A stretch of 64,000 bases of DNA from a virus (taxonomy: Duplodnaviria; Caudoviricetes), in IMG/VR virus record IMGVR_UViG_3300021431_000076, positions 192,001 through 256,000 of that record; one strand, 5' to 3'. This document shows, in pieces, positions 33,240-52,770 of the stretch (position 1 is its first letter; every line of letters starts with the position of its first letter). Under the pieces are notes generated by a model. The model had not been told where the DNA came from and ran no database searches. It saw only the letters and a list, made by a program, of their open reading frames with translations. Made by a program: the position numbers and the translations under genes.

Positions 33240-33254
33240 TATATTATAGCAGTG
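33240..33254 (+). promoter_or_regulatory. early-type promoter
   Basis: tatattat-agcagt-G. Confidence 0.7.
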
Positions 33255-33315
33255 ATAAAGTAAGAGACTCATCATGGTGATGATCTCATGTTTAAAAAAA
33301 GAAAGGAGCTTTATC

Positions 33316-33768
33316 ATGGAAACTAAGAAAAACTTTTTCGAGGAAATCGGACACCCCTCTCACGTATCGGCTTCTATCAAGGATAGAAAGTATATCCTAG
33401 ACAATATTTTTAAATATGGATATACTGATGACCATGATGGCAAAAATTACAGTAAGTATGATATGCCTATTCACATGGTTGGAATCTGGACGAATTATCG
33501 TTCGATCCAGATAATACCGATCTTTGAGAAGACTACATTTTGCTGCAATCCATTCTATGTAGCAAAAGATGGATCTATTCATCTCGATACGTGCTCTTGC
33601 GGGGGCACTGTTATAGGAGGGAATCTCGATAGGTATAATCGAGAAATGTCTCCAAACAACCGAGAAGGATTTCATACCAATGAATTGATTGTACCCTATA
33701 CTGAAGAGGGATGGAAAGCTATAAGAAATTCCAAAATCTTTTCTGTGGATGAAGATGAAGAAGCTTAA
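33316..33768 (+). CDS. early hypothetical protein (single-gene cassette)
   Basis: GAAAGGAG RBS favours ATG 33316 (METKK); higher-GC codons than its neighbours. Confidence 0.7.
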   Translation: METKKNFFEEIGHPSHVSASIKDRKYILDNIFKYGYTDDHDGKNYSKYDMPIHMVGIWTNYRSIQIIPIFEKTTFCCNPFYVAKDGSIHLDTCSCGGTVIGGNLDRYNREMSPNNREGFHTNELIVPYTEEGWKAIRNSKIFSVDEDEEA

Positions 33769-33847
33769 CTAAACAAAAGATAGGAGCACGAGAGCACGTT
33801 ACTCTGACGTGCTTCTATTTTTTTTTGAGTAAACTTATTTTTAGATA

Positions 33848-33862
33848 TATACTATTTATATG
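33848..33862 (+). promoter_or_regulatory. early-type promoter
   Basis: tatactat-ttatat-G; leader identical to the one at 22987. Confidence 0.7.
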
Positions 33863-33888: not shown

Positions 33889-34215
33889 ATGTTAACCAAA
33901 GAAGAACTCTCATTATGCAATTCCAAGGAAGATTATTTAGTTCGATATTTATTATGCTCTCTTGCTAAGAGCGATATTGAACTAGGTAAGAAATATAGAG
34001 AAGCTTTAAGATTTTTTGATATCCATTCTAAATCTGAAAGAACAGATACAGAGAAAGAGAAGGTGAAAGAATATGCAACTCTGTTTGTAGATATAAGAAC
34101 TAGTCTATATAGAGCTGTAAGAGAATTAACAAATCACGAGAAAGCGGACTTATTAGAGTATGATAATAAGTTAGATGAGTTTTTAGGGAGTATTAAATTA
34201 GAGGAGAATAAGTAA
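33889..34215 (+). CDS. hypothetical protein
   Basis: AAGGAGG RBS; coupled to the RNase H gene. Confidence 0.7.
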   Translation: MLTKEELSLCNSKEDYLVRYLLCSLAKSDIELGKKYREALRFFDIHSKSERTDTEKEKVKEYATLFVDIRTSLYRAVRELTNHEKADLLEYDNKLDEFLGSIKLEENK

Positions 34216-34913
34216 TGGAATTCAATTATCTAAATGCTGTGAATGTATTCACAGATGCATCAAATCTACCTGCTATGAATGGTAGAAAAGAAAATATCAT
34301 ATGCCCTGCTTATATAGTATCAATCAATGGATCCGTATTAGAATACGGATCCAGATTAATCAAAAATGCTACTGCAGCATATGGAGAATTATATGCATTA
34401 GCTATGGGAGTTCAAGCAGCTACTAGGTATGCCTATACTGGCATGCCTATTTATATCTATTCTGATTCTGAAATATCTGTATCTGCATGTACTAAATGGT
34501 TAGAGAAATGGTATATGAATGGTAGGGATAATTTCTATCTTACGAAAGGTGATAAGAATCCTGCTGCTAATCAAGAATTAGTTCTAGATATAGTAAGAAT
34601 GGTATGCCAAGCTAATATGAGAATAGGAATAATAAATATACTAGGTCATACTAGAAATGAAGATGTATCTGCTATGGAAAAATTCAGATACTATTTCTAC
34701 AGAGCTAATCATATTAGAGGAAGAGTTCCTATAGAACACTTACAAAATATGGCTCTATTTAATGACAAAGTTGATACTATATCTAGAACTGCATTGAAGA
34801 ATATATGTAATCCTAATCATCCTATAGTAAATCCAAAAGAGCAAGTACCAGGAATCTATTGGTATCCTAAGGATGAAGATATTCAGCTATATTTGTCATT
34901 GGTCAATAAGTAA
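34215..34913 (+). CDS. rnhA: ribonuclease HI
   Basis: VFTDAS, GELYAL, IYSDSE, GH and NDKVD catalytic pattern of RNase HI. Confidence 0.8.
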   Translation: MEFNYLNAVNVFTDASNLPAMNGRKENIICPAYIVSINGSVLEYGSRLIKNATAAYGELYALAMGVQAATRYAYTGMPIYIYSDSEISVSACTKWLEKWYMNGRDNFYLTKGDKNPAANQELVLDIVRMVCQANMRIGIINILGHTRNEDVSAMEKFRYYFYRANHIRGRVPIEHLQNMALFNDKVDTISRTALKNICNPNHPIVNPKEQVPGIYWYPKDEDIQLYLSLVNK

Positions 34914-41127: not shown

Positions 41128-41142
41128 TATATTATAGAACTG
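41128..41142 (+). promoter_or_regulatory. early-type promoter
   Basis: tatattat-agaact-G. Confidence 0.7.
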
Positions 41143-41179
41143 TAGATTAATCTATCATGTAAAAAGGAGAAATGTAGAC

Positions 41180-41968
41180 ATGAAAAAATTCGAAGAATTC
41201 AACAGTGGTAATGTTACTGAGGTTAAGAGTGCGATAAATAACGGTCGTGCTTTAATCATCACGTATTGCAACTGCAGCAAAAAGACCTGCATCAAACCTG
41301 AAATTGTAGAGAAGGAAGATATATATTCTCTCTACGATCATAAGTCTTTGATTATCGTTCGGGTCGAAGACAGCATCCGTGTTTGCCAGCTCAAGAAGTT
41401 CTACAATAGAGACGGTAATTATATTGTTATTGTGGAACATGTTGGTCGTAATATGATTTTAGATCAGCTGATAGATGCCGGTATCGGAGAAGGTTCACCG
41501 ATCTATGAACAGGCTGAAGCTGTCTTTGATAAAGCGGTAGACTTTGAAAAGCAAATCGAAGAAGCCAATAAAAAGGAGGAGGACGAAGAAGAATTTTCCG
41601 ATGATGTCTTTGATATCTTAAATGGAAAAGTAAAGAATAAGAACAAAAACAGTGATGGCGATATGCAAAGTCCTCTGGATCTGCTTGCCAAACTGTTGGC
41701 TGTTGGCGCTGCTAGTAAAGCAATCAAAACAACAGTAGATCCTGAAAATTATAAGTGGAAGCTGTTCAAAGATTTGGAAGAAAAACTTGGCAGAATGCCT
41801 ACTTTTGAGGAATTTGTCAATTCCGATCCGAATCTTTCCACAGAGGAAAAAGAAAAATTGGTAAATGAACACAAGGATAGAGAGGCCATTGGAGATTCCT
41901 TCCAGGGATTAATGGCCAAGATGTTGGAATCACTTGAAAAAGACTTGGAGAAAATGAATAAGAGATAA
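41180..41968 (+). CDS. early hypothetical protein
   Basis: AAGGAG RBS; own promoter and terminator (about 41994-42025). Confidence 0.7.
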   Translation: MKKFEEFNSGNVTEVKSAINNGRALIITYCNCSKKTCIKPEIVEKEDIYSLYDHKSLIIVRVEDSIRVCQLKKFYNRDGNYIVIVEHVGRNMILDQLIDAGIGEGSPIYEQAEAVFDKAVDFEKQIEEANKKEEDEEEFSDDVFDILNGKVKNKNKNSDGDMQSPLDLLAKLLAVGAASKAIKTTVDPENYKWKLFKDLEEKLGRMPTFEEFVNSDPNLSTEEKEKLVNEHKDREAIGDSFQGLMAKMLESLEKDLEKMNKR

Positions 41969-47732: not shown

Positions 47733-47747
47733 TATATTATTGCCGTG
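47733..47747 (+). promoter_or_regulatory. early-type promoter
   Basis: tatattat-tgccgt-G. Confidence 0.7.
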
Positions 47748-47814
47748 ATAAAGACAAGATCTACATCCAGGAGATTAGGGTGTAGACATGTAGAATTGAA
47801 AGGAGTCCTTTATC

Positions 47815-48099
47815 ATGTTAGTTTACATCAAAGAAAACCAGCTCGGTCGTGCTAATTTCGTTAACGCTGAAATCGGGAAAGATTGGATAAGCGTCACGAT
47901 CAAAAATCCTGAGAATGGTGAAGTTATTGAGTTTTCTCATGAATTAGAACTTGAGAAGAAATTCAATAAAAAAGCATTGATGATCATTTTCGAACGCGTA
48001 AAAAATGTCGAAAATGATCATCGAAATATATTGGATGAGGAGTACGTCGAAGAGACAGCAAAACTCATCCAAAAGAAAGCCGACAACGAATGGTTCTGA
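47815..48099 (+). CDS. early hypothetical protein (single-gene cassette)
   Basis: GAAAGGAG RBS; own promoter and terminator. Confidence 0.7.
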   Translation: MLVYIKENQLGRANFVNAEIGKDWISVTIKNPENGEVIEFSHELELEKKFNKKALMIIFERVKNVENDHRNILDEEYVEETAKLIQKKADNEWF

Positions 48100-48163
48100 G
48101 AATAAAAGGGGGTAGCAAAAAGCACGGGAGTATGCATAGTGCTACTCCCCTTTTATTTTTTCC

Positions 48164-48255: not shown

Positions 48256-51200
48256 GTGAGTTTAAGGTTTAGTGATGAGCTATTAAACACAGAAAATCCT
48301 TTTATTGATCTATTAATGTACAACCTAAAAATACTAGCATTTAACTGTGTTATTAAGAATGAGTATGATGCAAATGAAGCTGAAACAGAAGAGTCTCTAA
48401 AGAACTCTTCTATATATATCGCTTGTTTAGAAAATAAAGCTCATATTGAGTTATTTGATGAAATTCCTGTTTCTTTTTTGCAACAAGTTGGAATGCCTCA
48501 ATCACAAATAGATCTGTATGTAAATAATGGATATGATAAATATTATATACCTAAAGATATAGTATGGGATTATAATACTAAAGATTATGTTCCTAGTGGA
48601 ACTACTTATGAAGCAGACTTAAAACCATTATTACAAAATTGGTTTATAGCTAAATATGAAAATAACCATTATGAAGGAGAATTAAATAACTATTATAGAA
48701 AGATATTAGGTATACCTCCAGTAGGAGACTGGGGAATACCTATGGTTGAGTATGAATATTTATTTCCTTCTTATTTTACATATACTGGAGATTTTTTACA
48801 TGAGATAGGTCCAGATGCCTGCAAAACTCTTGATAGATTAGGAATACTAGATATAATAAAAGCAGATTATCCAGATGCTGATTATCTAGACTATGTTACT
48901 TGTGGTATTACTGCATATGATGCTAGAAATAAAATGGATATGCAGATATTATGGCATCCTAGTGTAGAAGAATTATCATATGACAATGAAGAATTAAATG
49001 TTAATACATTTAAAGCTATGATTCAAGAATTTGAAGATAAATATATTCAAAATAGAGAATTTATGCAAACAGCAGTATATTCTCAAGCAATGGAGATAGC
49101 ATCTACAGAATATCATTCTTTTATGATTCTATATACACTAATGATTACTATGATGGATATTCTTACAGAGATTCAATCTCATATTATCAAAAAAGATATC
49201 TTAAATAGAAGATGTGTACAATATATTTTATCTATGTATGGTATTCCATTCTATAGAAAGATACCAGAAAAGTTTCAAGAAAGAATAGCAAAGAACTGTC
49301 ATACTCTTATAAAGTATAAAGCTTCTCCACAAGGAATGGAGAACATAAAAGATATTTTTGATGCTCAAGATATTCAATTATATAAATATTATATCTTAAA
49401 AGCTAGAAAATTTGATTCATATGGAAGCTTTGCTTTTTCCGAATCTGATAAATTAGTATGTGGATATAATGATATAATTCTTCATGAAACTCTTAAAGAA
49501 ACAGTTGGTAATCCACCTCCAGCTCAACCTGTTCCTACTAATCTAAATTATACAACAAAATACCTATATGAAGATAGTGTATTAAACATGCCGCTAGATG
49601 GAACATATACATCTGGTATAGATGATCAAGTATTGACTGCTAACGCTACTAGTGATGCTCTTATTGGTGGAACTTATGCTGGTCAAGCTGCTGCTAACTT
49701 TACTGCTTTGACAGCAACAGACTATGTTCAGAGATATATACGTTGGCCTTTTCAATATTTTTTACAGAAAGGAAATGTATTCTTTGTTAAAATAGGAGAT
49801 TATATATTAAAGGAAGGAACAGACTTTGTTGTATATAACTATAACAAGATAAGAATTAAGAAGTCATTAATGACAAATCCAAATGCTGTTATTACATATG
49901 AATTCTATTATGATAAAGATACAATAAATGAGCCTTTTGATATTACACTAGATTATTCTTTGGTTACAAAAACCAAGAAAATTATAGGTACAACTTCTAA
50001 AACATATAGTCTAAAACCGTTACCATTTCCTACTTATCTTACTGAAGGAAATCAGGTTATTATATCTATTGGTTCTGTATGGTTAGCTGAGAATATGTAT
50101 ACTATAGATGTGAATAACCAAACTGTTACTATAACAGATAATTCTCTAGATCTAAATGGTAGAGAGATATATGCTATTCTTATATATTCTAAATTGATGC
50201 GATCAAAGTATGAGAAACATTATGTAGCAGTAACTTCTAACAACCAAAAGAAGTTCTATATACCAGAACCATATCAAAATTACGTAATAAATGAAAACTC
50301 ATTTTATGTAACTGCTGGTGATACATATATAGCACCAGAAAGATATAATATTGTTCCTTCTACAACTCAAGGTCAATCATATATAGAATTTAATGATAAT
50401 AGTAAATTTATTACAAGAAGAGGATTGTTATTCAACTTCATTTATAATCAAAATGCTATATTAAATAAGATAGATCTTAAAAGAAAATCTATCATAGTTA
50501 CAGTACAAGAACACTATCAATCTGAATTTGATATTACTTGGCCTACTAAAAATTATATAACTTCTGGTTATTTAGTATTTGTTAAATTATTTGGATGGTA
50601 TCTACCAAAAGAATCTTTCAGTTGTACTAATAAGAAACTATTATTACTAGATGAATCTTTGGCATTACCTGCTGGAACTCAAATAGAATTGGTGTGCTTC
50701 TATTGTAATAAAGATAGAACAACTGATGCTCATGATAACATTCGTATAGATAAAGATTATAGAATAGCAACTTCAGATAGACAAAAAACATTTAACTTCA
50801 AAGTTCCAGTAAAGCATTATGATACCAAATTTAATAAGATTATAGTAGATATAAATGGCAATGTATTGGAGTCAAATCAATATACAATAGATCTTAATCA
50901 TGTTAATACTGGTGCTGTTTTAAATATCACTTACTATTACCAAAGACCAATGAAAGACCAAAGGGTTAATCTTACCTTTGTATATAACCAAGATGCTGAA
51001 TATATACCTGTGATTAAACAACAGCATATTCCTATTACATCTACTAATCATAATACATTTGATTTAGATTTCCCATTCTTCCCATATTTACAATCAAATC
51101 ATGACTTCTTAGTATCTGTTGGTTCTACATTGATAAATAAGTCTAGAATACACATGAAAGATCAATTTACTTTCGAAGTAGAAGGATTGAATACTAAAGT

Positions 51201-52770
51201 AGGAAGATGTCTTACTATTTTATATATCTACTGTAGTTGGTATAAAGATAATCCTAAACAAGGATTAATAGTAGAATGGAAAGATGTTCCTAGAAGTAAA
51301 GCTATAGATCAAGGTATAAATATGCCTACCCCATTCAAAGAATACGTTCAGCACGGATGGGATTATTTTGTATCTTATAATAATCGTATTGAACTAGCAG
51401 AATCTAAATATGATGTGTTTGATGAGACTTTCTATACATATCCATCTTCCGATTTAGAAAAAGGTAAATATGGAAACACGATAACATTTACTTTCATATA
51501 CTTAATAAAACCACCATGGGTTCGTGCTATAACAGAAGAAGATTATGACCAAGATCAAGACCTCTATTTCTGTAGAATGCCAGTATTAGATTTATATTCA
51601 TCTAAATATTTGAGAGATGAATCTAAATGGTTAGGATATGATCCTGTTACTTTAGAAGATGGATGGTGGGATGGTTATCAATATAAGAAAGATTCCCATA
51701 AATTGATTAAAGAAAAGATTTATGATGAAAAATGGAACTATGCTAGATCTAAATACTATTCCATTTATCATGAATATGATGTATCTACATATGCAGCTTA
51801 TATGGGTTATTTCTATTCTATGCTATACGATTCTGTATTTTTAGAAAAAGAAATAAACTTAGAAATACCTTCTCTTGGTCCTGATCGCAAATTTAATATA
51901 GCACATCTATTTATTTTTATGAATATATTAACCAATATCTATTATGGTCTTGATGATTTTACTATAGATTATGCAACTAATCAGAAAAAAGTAGTAGGAT
52001 TTAATTTCAAAACAAATCTAAATACTCTAAAACTATGGATGAAAGAAAGACATTTTGATCCTAAACTATATAATATATGGGATTTCATTATTCCAACTTC
52101 TCAAATCATGTCTATGAGTAATTTCGCTAATATCTATATGAATAATATGAAAGTATATGAAAGAGTAATAGATAATATGGTCAAAGCAGAAACATTTAAA
52201 GACTATCAAATATGGAGACATATCAAAGAAACTTTATTTGAATGGGATTTTGATTTCTCTTACTTTAAAAAGAATAATGGTGTGAAAGCTACAACATATT
52301 CTGAATTTCTTAGAGATAAAGACTATCCTTTATATTTAGTGGCAGATAGTATTAAGAAAATTAAAAATGAAGAGACTAGAATAGATATGATAGTGTCTTA
52401 TATTGATGATATTTGTTACATCTTAGAAGGATATCTTGATAAAGAGATAGTAAGAATATTAGCAAGTAGATTCCCTGGTAGATCTTCTCTTCATATTTTA
52501 AAGTATATGAAATATATTTTAGAATTCTTCAAATCTTATAAAATAATCTTTAGATCTAATGGAGAGCATATGATATTTGGTGCTAATGGAAAAGAAACTG
52601 AAGATACTGTAATAAGATTTAATGATATTATGCATTCAGTAGAAAGATTCCAAAGAGATGAATATTATACAATGGTAGAGAATCCTACTACACTAGAACA
52701 TAAAGAAATTCATGATTATGGACCATGGTTAAAGGAAGATGTTGATATAAAGGAGATACATGTACAATGA
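48256..52770 (+). CDS. large baseplate/tail structural protein with internal beta-rich repeats
   Basis: Late promoter; repeated PFxxY..G..[VI]x[VI]G..[LI]...Y units; LIKYKAS motif typical of wedge proteins. Confidence 0.55.
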   Translation: MSLRFSDELLNTENPFIDLLMYNLKILAFNCVIKNEYDANEAETEESLKNSSIYIACLENKAHIELFDEIPVSFLQQVGMPQSQIDLYVNNGYDKYYIPKDIVWDYNTKDYVPSGTTYEADLKPLLQNWFIAKYENNHYEGELNNYYRKILGIPPVGDWGIPMVEYEYLFPSYFTYTGDFLHEIGPDACKTLDRLGILDIIKADYPDADYLDYVTCGITAYDARNKMDMQILWHPSVEELSYDNEELNVNTFKAMIQEFEDKYIQNREFMQTAVYSQAMEIASTEYHSFMILYTLMITMMDILTEIQSHIIKKDILNRRCVQYILSMYGIPFYRKIPEKFQERIAKNCHTLIKYKASPQGMENIKDIFDAQDIQLYKYYILKARKFDSYGSFAFSESDKLVCGYNDIILHETLKETVGNPPPAQPVPTNLNYTTKYLYEDSVLNMPLDGTYTSGIDDQVLTANATSDALIGGTYAGQAAANFTALTATDYVQRYIRWPFQYFLQKGNVFFVKIGDYILKEGTDFVVYNYNKIRIKKSLMTNPNAVITYEFYYDKDTINEPFDITLDYSLVTKTKKIIGTTSKTYSLKPLPFPTYLTEGNQVIISIGSVWLAENMYTIDVNNQTVTITDNSLDLNGREIYAILIYSKLMRSKYEKHYVAVTSNNQKKFYIPEPYQNYVINENSFYVTAGDTYIAPERYNIVPSTTQGQSYIEFNDNSKFITRRGLLFNFIYNQNAILNKIDLKRKSIIVTVQEHYQSEFDITWPTKNYITSGYLVFVKLFGWYLPKESFSCTNKKLLLLDESLALPAGTQIELVCFYCNKDRTTDAHDNIRIDKDYRIATSDRQKTFNFKVPVKHYDTKFNKIIVDINGNVLESNQYTIDLNHVNTGAVLNITYYYQRPMKDQRVNLTFVYNQDAEYIPVIKQQHIPITSTNHNTFDLDFPFFPYLQSNHDFLVSVGSTLINKSRIHMKDQFTFEVEGLNTKVGRCLTILYIYCSWYKDNPKQGLIVEWKDVPRSKAIDQGINMPTPFKEYVQHGWDYFVSYNNRIELAESKYDVFDETFYTYPSSDLEKGKYGNTITFTFIYLIKPPWVRAITEEDYDQDQDLYFCRMPVLDLYSSKYLRDESKWLGYDPVTLEDGWWDGYQYKKDSHKLIKEKIYDEKWNYARSKYYSIYHEYDVSTYAAYMGYFYSMLYDSVFLEKEINLEIPSLGPDRKFNIAHLFIFMNILTNIYYGLDDFTIDYATNQKKVVGFNFKTNLNTLKLWMKERHFDPKLYNIWDFIIPTSQIMSMSNFANIYMNNMKVYERVIDNMVKAETFKDYQIWRHIKETLFEWDFDFSYFKKNNGVKATTYSEFLRDKDYPLYLVADSIKKIKNEETRIDMIVSYIDDICYILEGYLDKEIVRILASRFPGRSSLHILKYMKYILEFFKSYKIIFRSNGEHMIFGANGKETEDTVIRFNDIMHSVERFQRDEYYTMVENPTTLEHKEIHDYGPWLKEDVDIKEIHVQ

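Follow-up and report, generated by a model that had tools for sequence, protein, structure and literature searches.

A 5' leader RNA family with covarying helices in front of shuffled, predicted early-gene cassettes of an uncultured jumbo phage

Identification of the leader family

The leader that precedes a set of small genes in the phage genome studied here represents a real, uncatalogued cis-RNA family, which was previously undescribed. The present analysis supports the family itself, both helices of its fold, the geometry of its promoter and the swaps of its parts between related phages. The DNA analyzed (hereafter the window) is a stretch of 64,000 nucleotides, bases 192001-256000 of a 332,775-bp virus record with a GC content of 31% and a CheckV rating of complete. 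Judging from its sequence, the phage is an uncultured jumbo phage and a distant relative of AR9. Two RNA polymerase (RNAP) beta-like genes, with matches above the Pfam cut-off, were found in the 332,775-bp genome. One of the two proteins is 30% identical to the beta subunit of AR9/PBS1, and the next nearest proteins are those of Staphylococcus and Listeria jumbo phages. By homology only, the host would be a Firmicute.

Two copies of the leader were found on the plus strand of the window. As described in the initial annotation, GATAAAG is located at 33254-33260 and 47747-47753, and CTTTATC at 33309-33315 and 47808-47814, in both cases between GAAAGGAG and the ATG. The inner hairpins of the two leaders differ from each other and each is followed by CATGT, again as described. 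Leader copy 1 extends from G+1 to the AUG (33254-33318). Its terminal helix (hereafter P1) pairs 33254-33261 with 33308-33315, and its inner hairpin (hereafter P2) is located at 33264-33287 (type A, loop UGG). The Shine-Dalgarno sequence (SD), GAAAGGAG, is at 33301-33308 and the AUG is at 33316-33318. Both the MFE and the centroid folds of this copy gave P1 and P2 (z = -3.0), and the copy scored 88.9 bits with our first covariance model (R1) and 60.4 bits with the rebuilt model (R2). In leader copy 2 (47747-47817), the predicted fold pairs 47747-47753 with 47808-47814 in P1 and places P2 at 47760-47786 (type B, loop AGGAGAUUA), followed by the SD at 47798-47805 and the AUG at 47815-47817. Its scores were 43.6 bits (R1) and 70.2 bits (R2).

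The leader layout, that is TATATTAT, 6 bases, GATAAAG, a hairpin, CATGT, an A/U-rich stretch with GAAAGGAG, 0-2 bases, CTTTATC and ATG, did not occur in any of 100 dinucleotide-shuffled versions of the window. In the whole genome the full pattern has seven exact occurrences, each behind TATATTAT and before a short ORF that has a terminator of its own. Because P2 did not align across the leaders with MAFFT, R1 was built from four similar copies with a structure set by hand, and all copies were realigned to the model. The covariance model raised the seven exact copies of the genome to 12, located at genome positions 1647+, 53148+, 77570-, 91860-, 100435-, 146388-, 154804-, 172546-, 225252+, 239745+, 268067+ and 268971+. 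The same 12 copies were recovered by R2, which was rebuilt from 21 sequences. The covariance model also found eight copies in G001, a related IMG/VR phage of 342,328 bp. A pattern scan of metagenomes gave three short contigs with a family leader (L251, L226 and L206), the pattern matches being mostly due to chance among those listed. In place of the two instances from which the initial annotation started, 23 are therefore known. Three members are short forms without P2.

A third leader in the window had been noted beside these two for its hairpin followed by CATGT. Its early-type promoter and leader lie at 41128-41182 on the plus strand, with G+1 at 41142. The small hairpin at its 5' end is indeed followed by CAUGU, but the leader has no end-to-start helix and did not match the covariance model. 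It is thus not a member of the family and was classified with the leaders starting in a local 5' hairpin.

No match was found with Rfam 15, either at the gathering threshold or by E-value, the only matches being sub-threshold chance matches inside ORFs. The leader model found no match in AR9, Staphylococcus phage S6, BpSp, Listeria phage LPJP1 and phiR1-37, and nucleotide searches of the phage collection gave no match in either the near or the distant mode. A search of IMG/VR for TATATTAT-N6-GATAAAG returned only chance matches, and none of 79 loci among the matches listed scored with the model. Supported by covariation, the family defines an RNA element that marks part of the predicted early genes, is not listed in Rfam and is missing from the AR9-like phages in culture.

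One recurrent candidate was rejected. In the human-gut contigs L242, L233, L234 and L268, a conserved stretch of 85 nt, from GTGATAAAGG to GGAGGACTTTATCATG, precedes a gene starting with MRKYPL or MRKLPL. It scored only about 25 bits and has no TATATTAT promoter. This stretch is probably an unrelated bacterial leader that shares both end motifs by chance.

Promoter and predicted transcription start

In AR9, 41 early transcription starts read by the virion RNA polymerase (vRNAP) were mapped experimentally to AAATATATATTAT-N6-G+1 (PMC5312081), and Table S2 of that study confirms the geometry TATATTAT-N6-G+1 for the early promoters. The promoter box of cassette 1, TATATTAT at 33240-33247 (+), fits this consensus, with G+1 six nucleotides on at 33254. 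The box of cassette 2, also TATATTAT, is at 47733-47740 (+), with G+1 at 47747. The AR9-type consensus (AAATA)TATATTAT-N6-G+1 is thus present at 33240-33254 and 47733-47747, and it is found at about 44 intergenic sites of the genome. Since the mapped geometry holds here, we placed +1 on the G of GATAAAG. Both the start at G+1 and the early timing would follow by homology with AR9. A canonical -35 element of a sigma-70-like early promoter was not found in the family promoter, which is TATATTAT-N6-G and resembles the AR9 vRNAP type.

The resemblance to AR9/PBS1 extends to the small early genes, which form single-gene units there as well (Lavysh et al. 2017, PMC5312081), and it may extend to two multisubunit RNAP sets, of which two beta-like genes were found here. 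In the early leaders of AR9, the 5' end was no more complementary to the nucleotides preceding the AUG than expected by chance (permutation test, p = 0.37).

When the approximately 44 intergenic early promoters were classified by the start of their RNA, 12 were followed by P1, 13 directly by an SD, five by a local hairpin and 14 by none of these. The leader family therefore stands behind 12 of the approximately 44 predicted early promoters, which corresponds to about a quarter of the predicted early messages. Because starts with P1, a direct SD or a local hairpin predominate, most early RNAs would leave little free 5' end. P1 seems to continue into the first two bases of the AUG, but this extra pairing is not credited to the helix. 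The R-T at -2/-1 that would provide it is common to all early promoters of the phage, and the pairing was therefore discounted.

A second promoter-like class, TATACTAT-N6-G, was observed at about 23 sites in the genome, including 33848-33862 of the window. Its geometry is that of the TATATTAT class, from which it differs at box position 5; the RNA would typically start with GAG(U)AUGAG, and the class has its own upstream element of the TTTCAG type. The G001 family leaders L037 and L041 lie behind TATACTAT and not behind TATATTAT. The TATACTAT class may represent a different temporal class.

Structure and covariation of the leader

P1 is the helix between bases +1 to +7/10 and the 7-10 bases directly before the AUG, in which G+1 is opposite C-1. 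It usually encloses the variable hairpin P2, and the SD is located in an open loop of about 20 nt. All of the seven exact copies fold as P1 and P2 with an unpaired SD (z of -2.5 to -4.1).

Since the two strands of P1 are anchored at the transcription start and at the AUG, their covariation is visible without any alignment. Five compensated versions of P1 were found, GAUAAAG/CUUUAUC (16 copies), GAUGAAU/AUUCAUC (3 copies), GAUAAAC/GUUUAUC (2 copies), GAUGAUA/UAUCAUC (1 copy) and GAUAAGA/UCUUAUC (1 copy), and the register of G+1:C-1 is constant in all of them. The G+1:C-1 pair is formed in 23 of 23 leaders, a count that depends on the inferred start, and the helix would thus begin within 0-2 nt of the 5' end. 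For the 21 sequences of the alignment, which was fitted to the model, 95% of the cells are paired, double-sided changes have occurred in 12 of 20 pairs and none of 500 shuffles reached so high a value. When the partners were slid by 1-3 columns as a control, pairing was only 26-52%.

P2 exists in two types. In type A, a conserved top, CAUCAUGGUGRUG, is carried by a lower stem that covaries. The stems of type B also covary and end in a purine-rich loop, often RGAGAUUR; the loops of most type-B hairpins are conserved (AGAGAUUA, GGAGAUUA and CGAGAUUGA). With regard to a possible pseudoknot or triple helix, no covariation between the U-rich stretch after P2 and the versions of P1 was seen by eye.

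When folding was started at G+1 and 30 nt of the ORF were included, P1 dominated the predicted ensemble in only about 13 of the 23 leaders, and the energy model alone is for this reason indecisive. According to the folding model, states with and without P1 are nearly isoenergetic, with a mean difference of -1.5 kcal/mol. The modelled probability that the SD is unpaired was 0.86 with P1 formed and 0.52 with the 5' strand blocked (p = 2e-5). Part of this difference follows from the set-up of the comparison, since a forced P1 makes the spacer unavailable for pairing with the SD. With the 5' strand blocked, the pyrimidine-rich spacer pairs back onto the purine-rich SD in the model.

The initial annotation regarded the leader as sequestering the start. 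The GATAAAG/CTTTATC helix on which this was based is present, but with transcription starting at G+1, P1 would cover only the 7-10 nt spacer between the SD and the AUG and neither of these two elements. Since the SD is modelled as single-stranded and the AUG lies just outside P1, a start-sequestering switch is only one possible reading.

Two other candidate roles were rejected at this stage. The ATG contained in the CAUGU after P2 is not a conserved uORF, as the copies do not agree in its reading frame or length, and in one of them it is AUG-UAG. A DNA operator for a dimeric DNA-binding protein does not fit five compensated versions with a variable spacing of 27-58 nt.

Cassette content and exchange

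All 12 units of the genome consist of an upstream terminator, TATATTAT, a leader with an SD, an ORFan and a terminator of their own. In this respect they resemble the PeSLs of T4-type phages, in which a repeated terminator stem-loop, an early promoter, an SD and a start codon precede ORFans (Arbiol et al. 2010, PMC2839356; Comeau et al. 2014, PMC4122927). They also resemble PeSLs in that the ends of indels and replacements between close relatives fall in the motifs (PMC2839356, PMC4122927). The two systems differ in the promoter, which is sigma-70-like in PeSLs and of the AR9 virion-RNAP type here, and in the transcribed leader with covarying helices, with which PeSLs were not described.

The cargo ORF of cassette 1 (33316-33768, +) encodes an ORFan of 150 aa (GC 0.378, GC3 0.367) with no Pfam match and only a weak match to a PHROG of unknown function; its orthologue in G001 shows 58% amino acid identity. 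The cargo ORF of cassette 2 (47815-48099, +) encodes an ORFan of 94 aa (GC3 0.43) with neither a Pfam nor a PHROG match. A 55%-identical orthologue of it is found on the metagenome contig L251, behind a leader with a different P2. The 12 cargo ORFs encode 69-216 aa, and no function was found for them in Pfam or PHROG. That the cargo proteins are unrelated, as had been suggested from two of them, holds for the whole set: no pair among the 12 is similar at blastp E<0.01. Their higher codon GC was likewise confirmed, with a mean GC3 of 0.375 for the 12 ORFs compared with a genome mean of 0.218 (p = 2e-6 against 171 small genes, Mann-Whitney). The other genes behind early-type promoters are intermediate (GC3 0.306). 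The raised GC3 is therefore not specific to the family, because other early genes share a lesser rise. The rise in the early genes could reflect a recent foreign origin, or selection on codons or by RNases acting on early messages.

Three neighbouring genes may be mentioned here. Downstream of cassette 1, a 232-aa ORF at 34215-34910 (+) of the window matches the Pfam RNase H family (PF00075, E = 1.3e-8). The 1504-aa ORF at 48256-52770 (+) has a single match in the phage collection, a weak one to a structural protein of the virion of Yersinia phage phiR1-37 (168 aa, 21% identical). A paralogue of the ORF of the family copy at 91860(-) (hereafter G0_91860, and likewise for the other genome copies), with 36% identity, is located in the adjacent unit (92981-92658), the short leader of which starts with the SD.

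The comparison with relatives bears out the view of the initial annotation that these are portable cassettes into which different ORFs are swapped. Replacement of the ORF, replacement of the leader, and gain or loss of one whole cassette were all observed, with junctions in the leader and the terminators. The proteins of G0_91860 and L304 are 90% identical, yet one is preceded by a P1 of GAUAAAG/CUUUAUC and the other by a P1 of GAUGAAU/AUUCAUC; P2 differs as well. The orthologues G0_77570 and L305 are likewise located behind different versions of P1 and P2, and the G0_77570 cassette is 68% identical compared with 95% for its flanks. At the site of G0_172546 and L039, the two phages share about 91% identity over the promoter and the initial 36 nt of the leader. 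The ORF was replaced between P2 and the terminator: identity is lost over the SD, the spacer and the whole ORF (69 aa versus an unrelated 104 aa), and is regained at the stop codon and terminator. The 5' strand of P1, which lies inside the conserved part, is altered so as to match the new 3' strand. G001 has an extra cassette of 461 bp (L041) between direct repeats of the UUCG terminator. The same version of P2 is found at different loci of different phages in three cases (L037 and L251; L039 and L226; G0_239745 and L040). As DNA, the repeats formed by the terminators, promoters and leaders would provide homology handles, by which single-gene cassettes may gain, lose and exchange ORFs and leaders.

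At genome position 96849(-), an early promoter is followed by a borderline P1-like leader, GAUAAUA...UAUUAUG, the shift of which would pair the AU of the AUG, and then by an ORF of only 13 codons and a terminator. The syntenic locus of G001, L038, has a 180-aa ORF behind a full family leader. The locus at 96849(-) looks like an emptied or degraded cassette.

Proposed function of the leader

The leader is a portable element of the PeSL-like cassettes, and we consider, with moderate confidence, that it caps the 5' end of the message and insulates the ribosome-binding site. Acting in cis, P1 would leave no free 5' end for 5'-end-dependent decay. It would at the same time fix the fold of the ribosome-binding region by keeping the pyrimidine-rich spacer off both the SD and the downstream ORF. 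Expression would then be independent of the cargo, and initiation would require only the melting of a short, AU-rich terminal helix. Such an insulating leader would suit swappable cassettes, since any ORF may be dropped in behind it. Both the stabilization and the insulation are inferred.

What is known of 5' ends in Bacillus is consistent with the capping part of this proposal. RppH of B. subtilis needs at least two unpaired 5' nucleotides and favours G at position 2 (PMC3997798), and both 5' stem-loops and initiating ribosomes block RNase J1 (PMC3997798, PMC5737220). The family RNAs, if started at G+1, present a paired G first and then A. The 5'-terminal stabilizers of Bacillus (the aprE leader, ermC and the 5'/3'-UTR pairing of hbs) similarly have a paired 5' end without an overhang, a strong SD nearby and a shielding long-range partner (PMC3997798, PMC5737220). 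The difference is that the predicted pairing partner of the 5' end is here the SD-AUG spacer of the same leader. Because of this choice of partner, ribosome binding and pairing of the 5' end would be mutually exclusive. The pairing with the spacer needs a further reason, because a plain 5' hairpin would suffice for protection of the 5' end.

The early genes of jumbo phages are mostly host-takeover ORFans, and their post-transcriptional control is almost unknown. The element described here joins a cis leader fold, in which the 5' end is tied to the start site, with PeSL-like cassette shuffling in a virion-RNAP lineage. If the insulating and stabilizing function holds true, the 42-74-nt leader would be a compact part for context-independent expression in Gram-positive hosts.

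There are other possible interpretations of the same structure. One is that P1 is a translational off-switch or thermosensor, which would block initiation until it is melted by temperature or another signal and would mainly repress or time translation. P1 does occupy the spacer, which the 30S initiation complex requires in single-stranded form. The helix is also short and rich in A and U, predicted P1 and non-P1 states are close in energy, and any transcripts starting at -2 or -1 would have the AU of the start codon paired as well. Like the ROSE and fourU thermometers and RBS switches, the leader has a short AU-rich helix of the 5'-UTR adjoining the start codon. Unlike in these elements and in classic RBS-sequestering hairpins, however, the consensus structure leaves both the SD and the AUG unpaired and outside the helix, and there is no Rfam match. 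In addition, P1 holds the free end of the RNA and would fray easily, and its loss in the model lowers the accessibility of the SD rather than raising it. We therefore regard an off-switch as rather unlikely.

Recognition by a trans-acting factor is a second possibility. The conservation of the RGAGAUUR loop of P2 and the use of one P1 version in 16 of 23 copies give a hint of recognition by a sequence-specific factor. A phage protein or small RNA binding to the P2 loop, the P1 junction or both could bring about the joint shut-off or processing of a subset of early messages, in a logic like that of T4 RegA/RegB. The stems of P2 covary under a conserved loop in most type-B hairpins, the type-A top is conserved, and the element marks a defined subset of 12 of the approximately 44 early promoters. 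On the other hand, P2 is dispensable, being absent from the three short-form members, the sequence of P1 varies with compensation, the loops of types A and B differ, and no candidate factor was found. An operator of this kind appears unlikely to us.

A more speculative idea, which we consider distinctly unlikely at present, is that the leader might be a two-state device that couples the status of the mRNA 5' end to ribosome access. Intact P1 would hold the SD open. As soon as something engages, trims or binds the 5' end, the spacer would fold onto the SD and the message would be silenced, with a phage factor at the P2 loop as a possible binder. If true, the swappable early genes of virion-RNAP phages would possess a built-in, cargo-independent shut-off timer.

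RNase III-type processing stalks occur in the early RNAs of phages such as T7 and SP82. On the 5' side no more than 2-5 nt lie between P1 (7-10 bp) and P2 (8-10 bp), and the two could stack into a rod of about 20 bp, to be cut by a host double-strand RNase that inactivates or matures the early message. P1 and P2, however, do not form a continuous duplex because of the unpaired bulge of about 20 nt on the 3' side; moreover, the short forms have only 7-8 bp, and a cut in the 3' strand of P1 would part the SD from the AUG. A stalk of this type is very improbable. Equally improbable, and already disfavoured, is that the leaders are DNA repeats only, left over from duplication or serving as recombination sites without any function of an RNA structure: the repeats clearly take part in recombination, but compensatory changes preserve pairing in both helices despite sequence change, all five P1 versions keep the exact G+1:C-1 register, and the post-swap 5' strand matches its new 3' strand within otherwise about 91%-identical DNA.

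Terminators of the cassettes

The intrinsic terminator of cassette 1 (33780-33826, +) has a long hairpin of 33780-33790 with 33808-33818, an apical AGAG/CUCU mini-stem and a U-run. A second copy of GAGCACG is located in the apical part of the hairpin. The MFE is -22.6 kcal/mol, compared with -12.3 kcal/mol when the first arm is blocked, and the terminator is conserved in L036 of G001. In the intrinsic terminator of cassette 2 (48104-48161, +), the outer stem is formed by 48104-48117 and 48140-48154, the left arm is repeated at 48126-48136 and a U-run follows; the corresponding energies are -27.4 and -14.6 kcal/mol.

Both terminators had been described as bistable, with a left arm duplicated next to AGCACG and two exclusive stems, and as a feature shared by the cassettes. 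The duplicated arms are present and are retained in the orthologous L036 and L251, but conservation of AGCACG does not extend to L251. Folding through the second arm costs 10-13 kcal/mol relative to the MFE, no such fold lies within 4 kcal/mol of the MFE, and both alternative stems keep the same right arm at the U-run. Furthermore, 10 of the 12 cassettes have plain terminators. On the basis of these energies and of the plain terminators, the terminators are neither bistable nor a shared feature of the module. We treat the duplication of the left arm as an unexplained local detail and not as a switch.

Two other groups of terminators were observed. At genome positions 145857(-) and 154344(-), the terminators of family cassettes with unrelated ORFs have a common hairpin top, GGACUCUACAUCC, on different lower stems. 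This top is absent elsewhere in the genome and is found in L040 and L037 of G001 and, behind a third unrelated ORF, on the contig L206. At about 91.4-93.3 kb of the genome (L022; L304/L041 in G001), tandem early single-gene units lie between near-identical terminators with a UUCG tetraloop, AGAACCCTTCGGGGTTCTTTTTTGTA, and these terminators flank the G0_91860 cassette as direct repeats.
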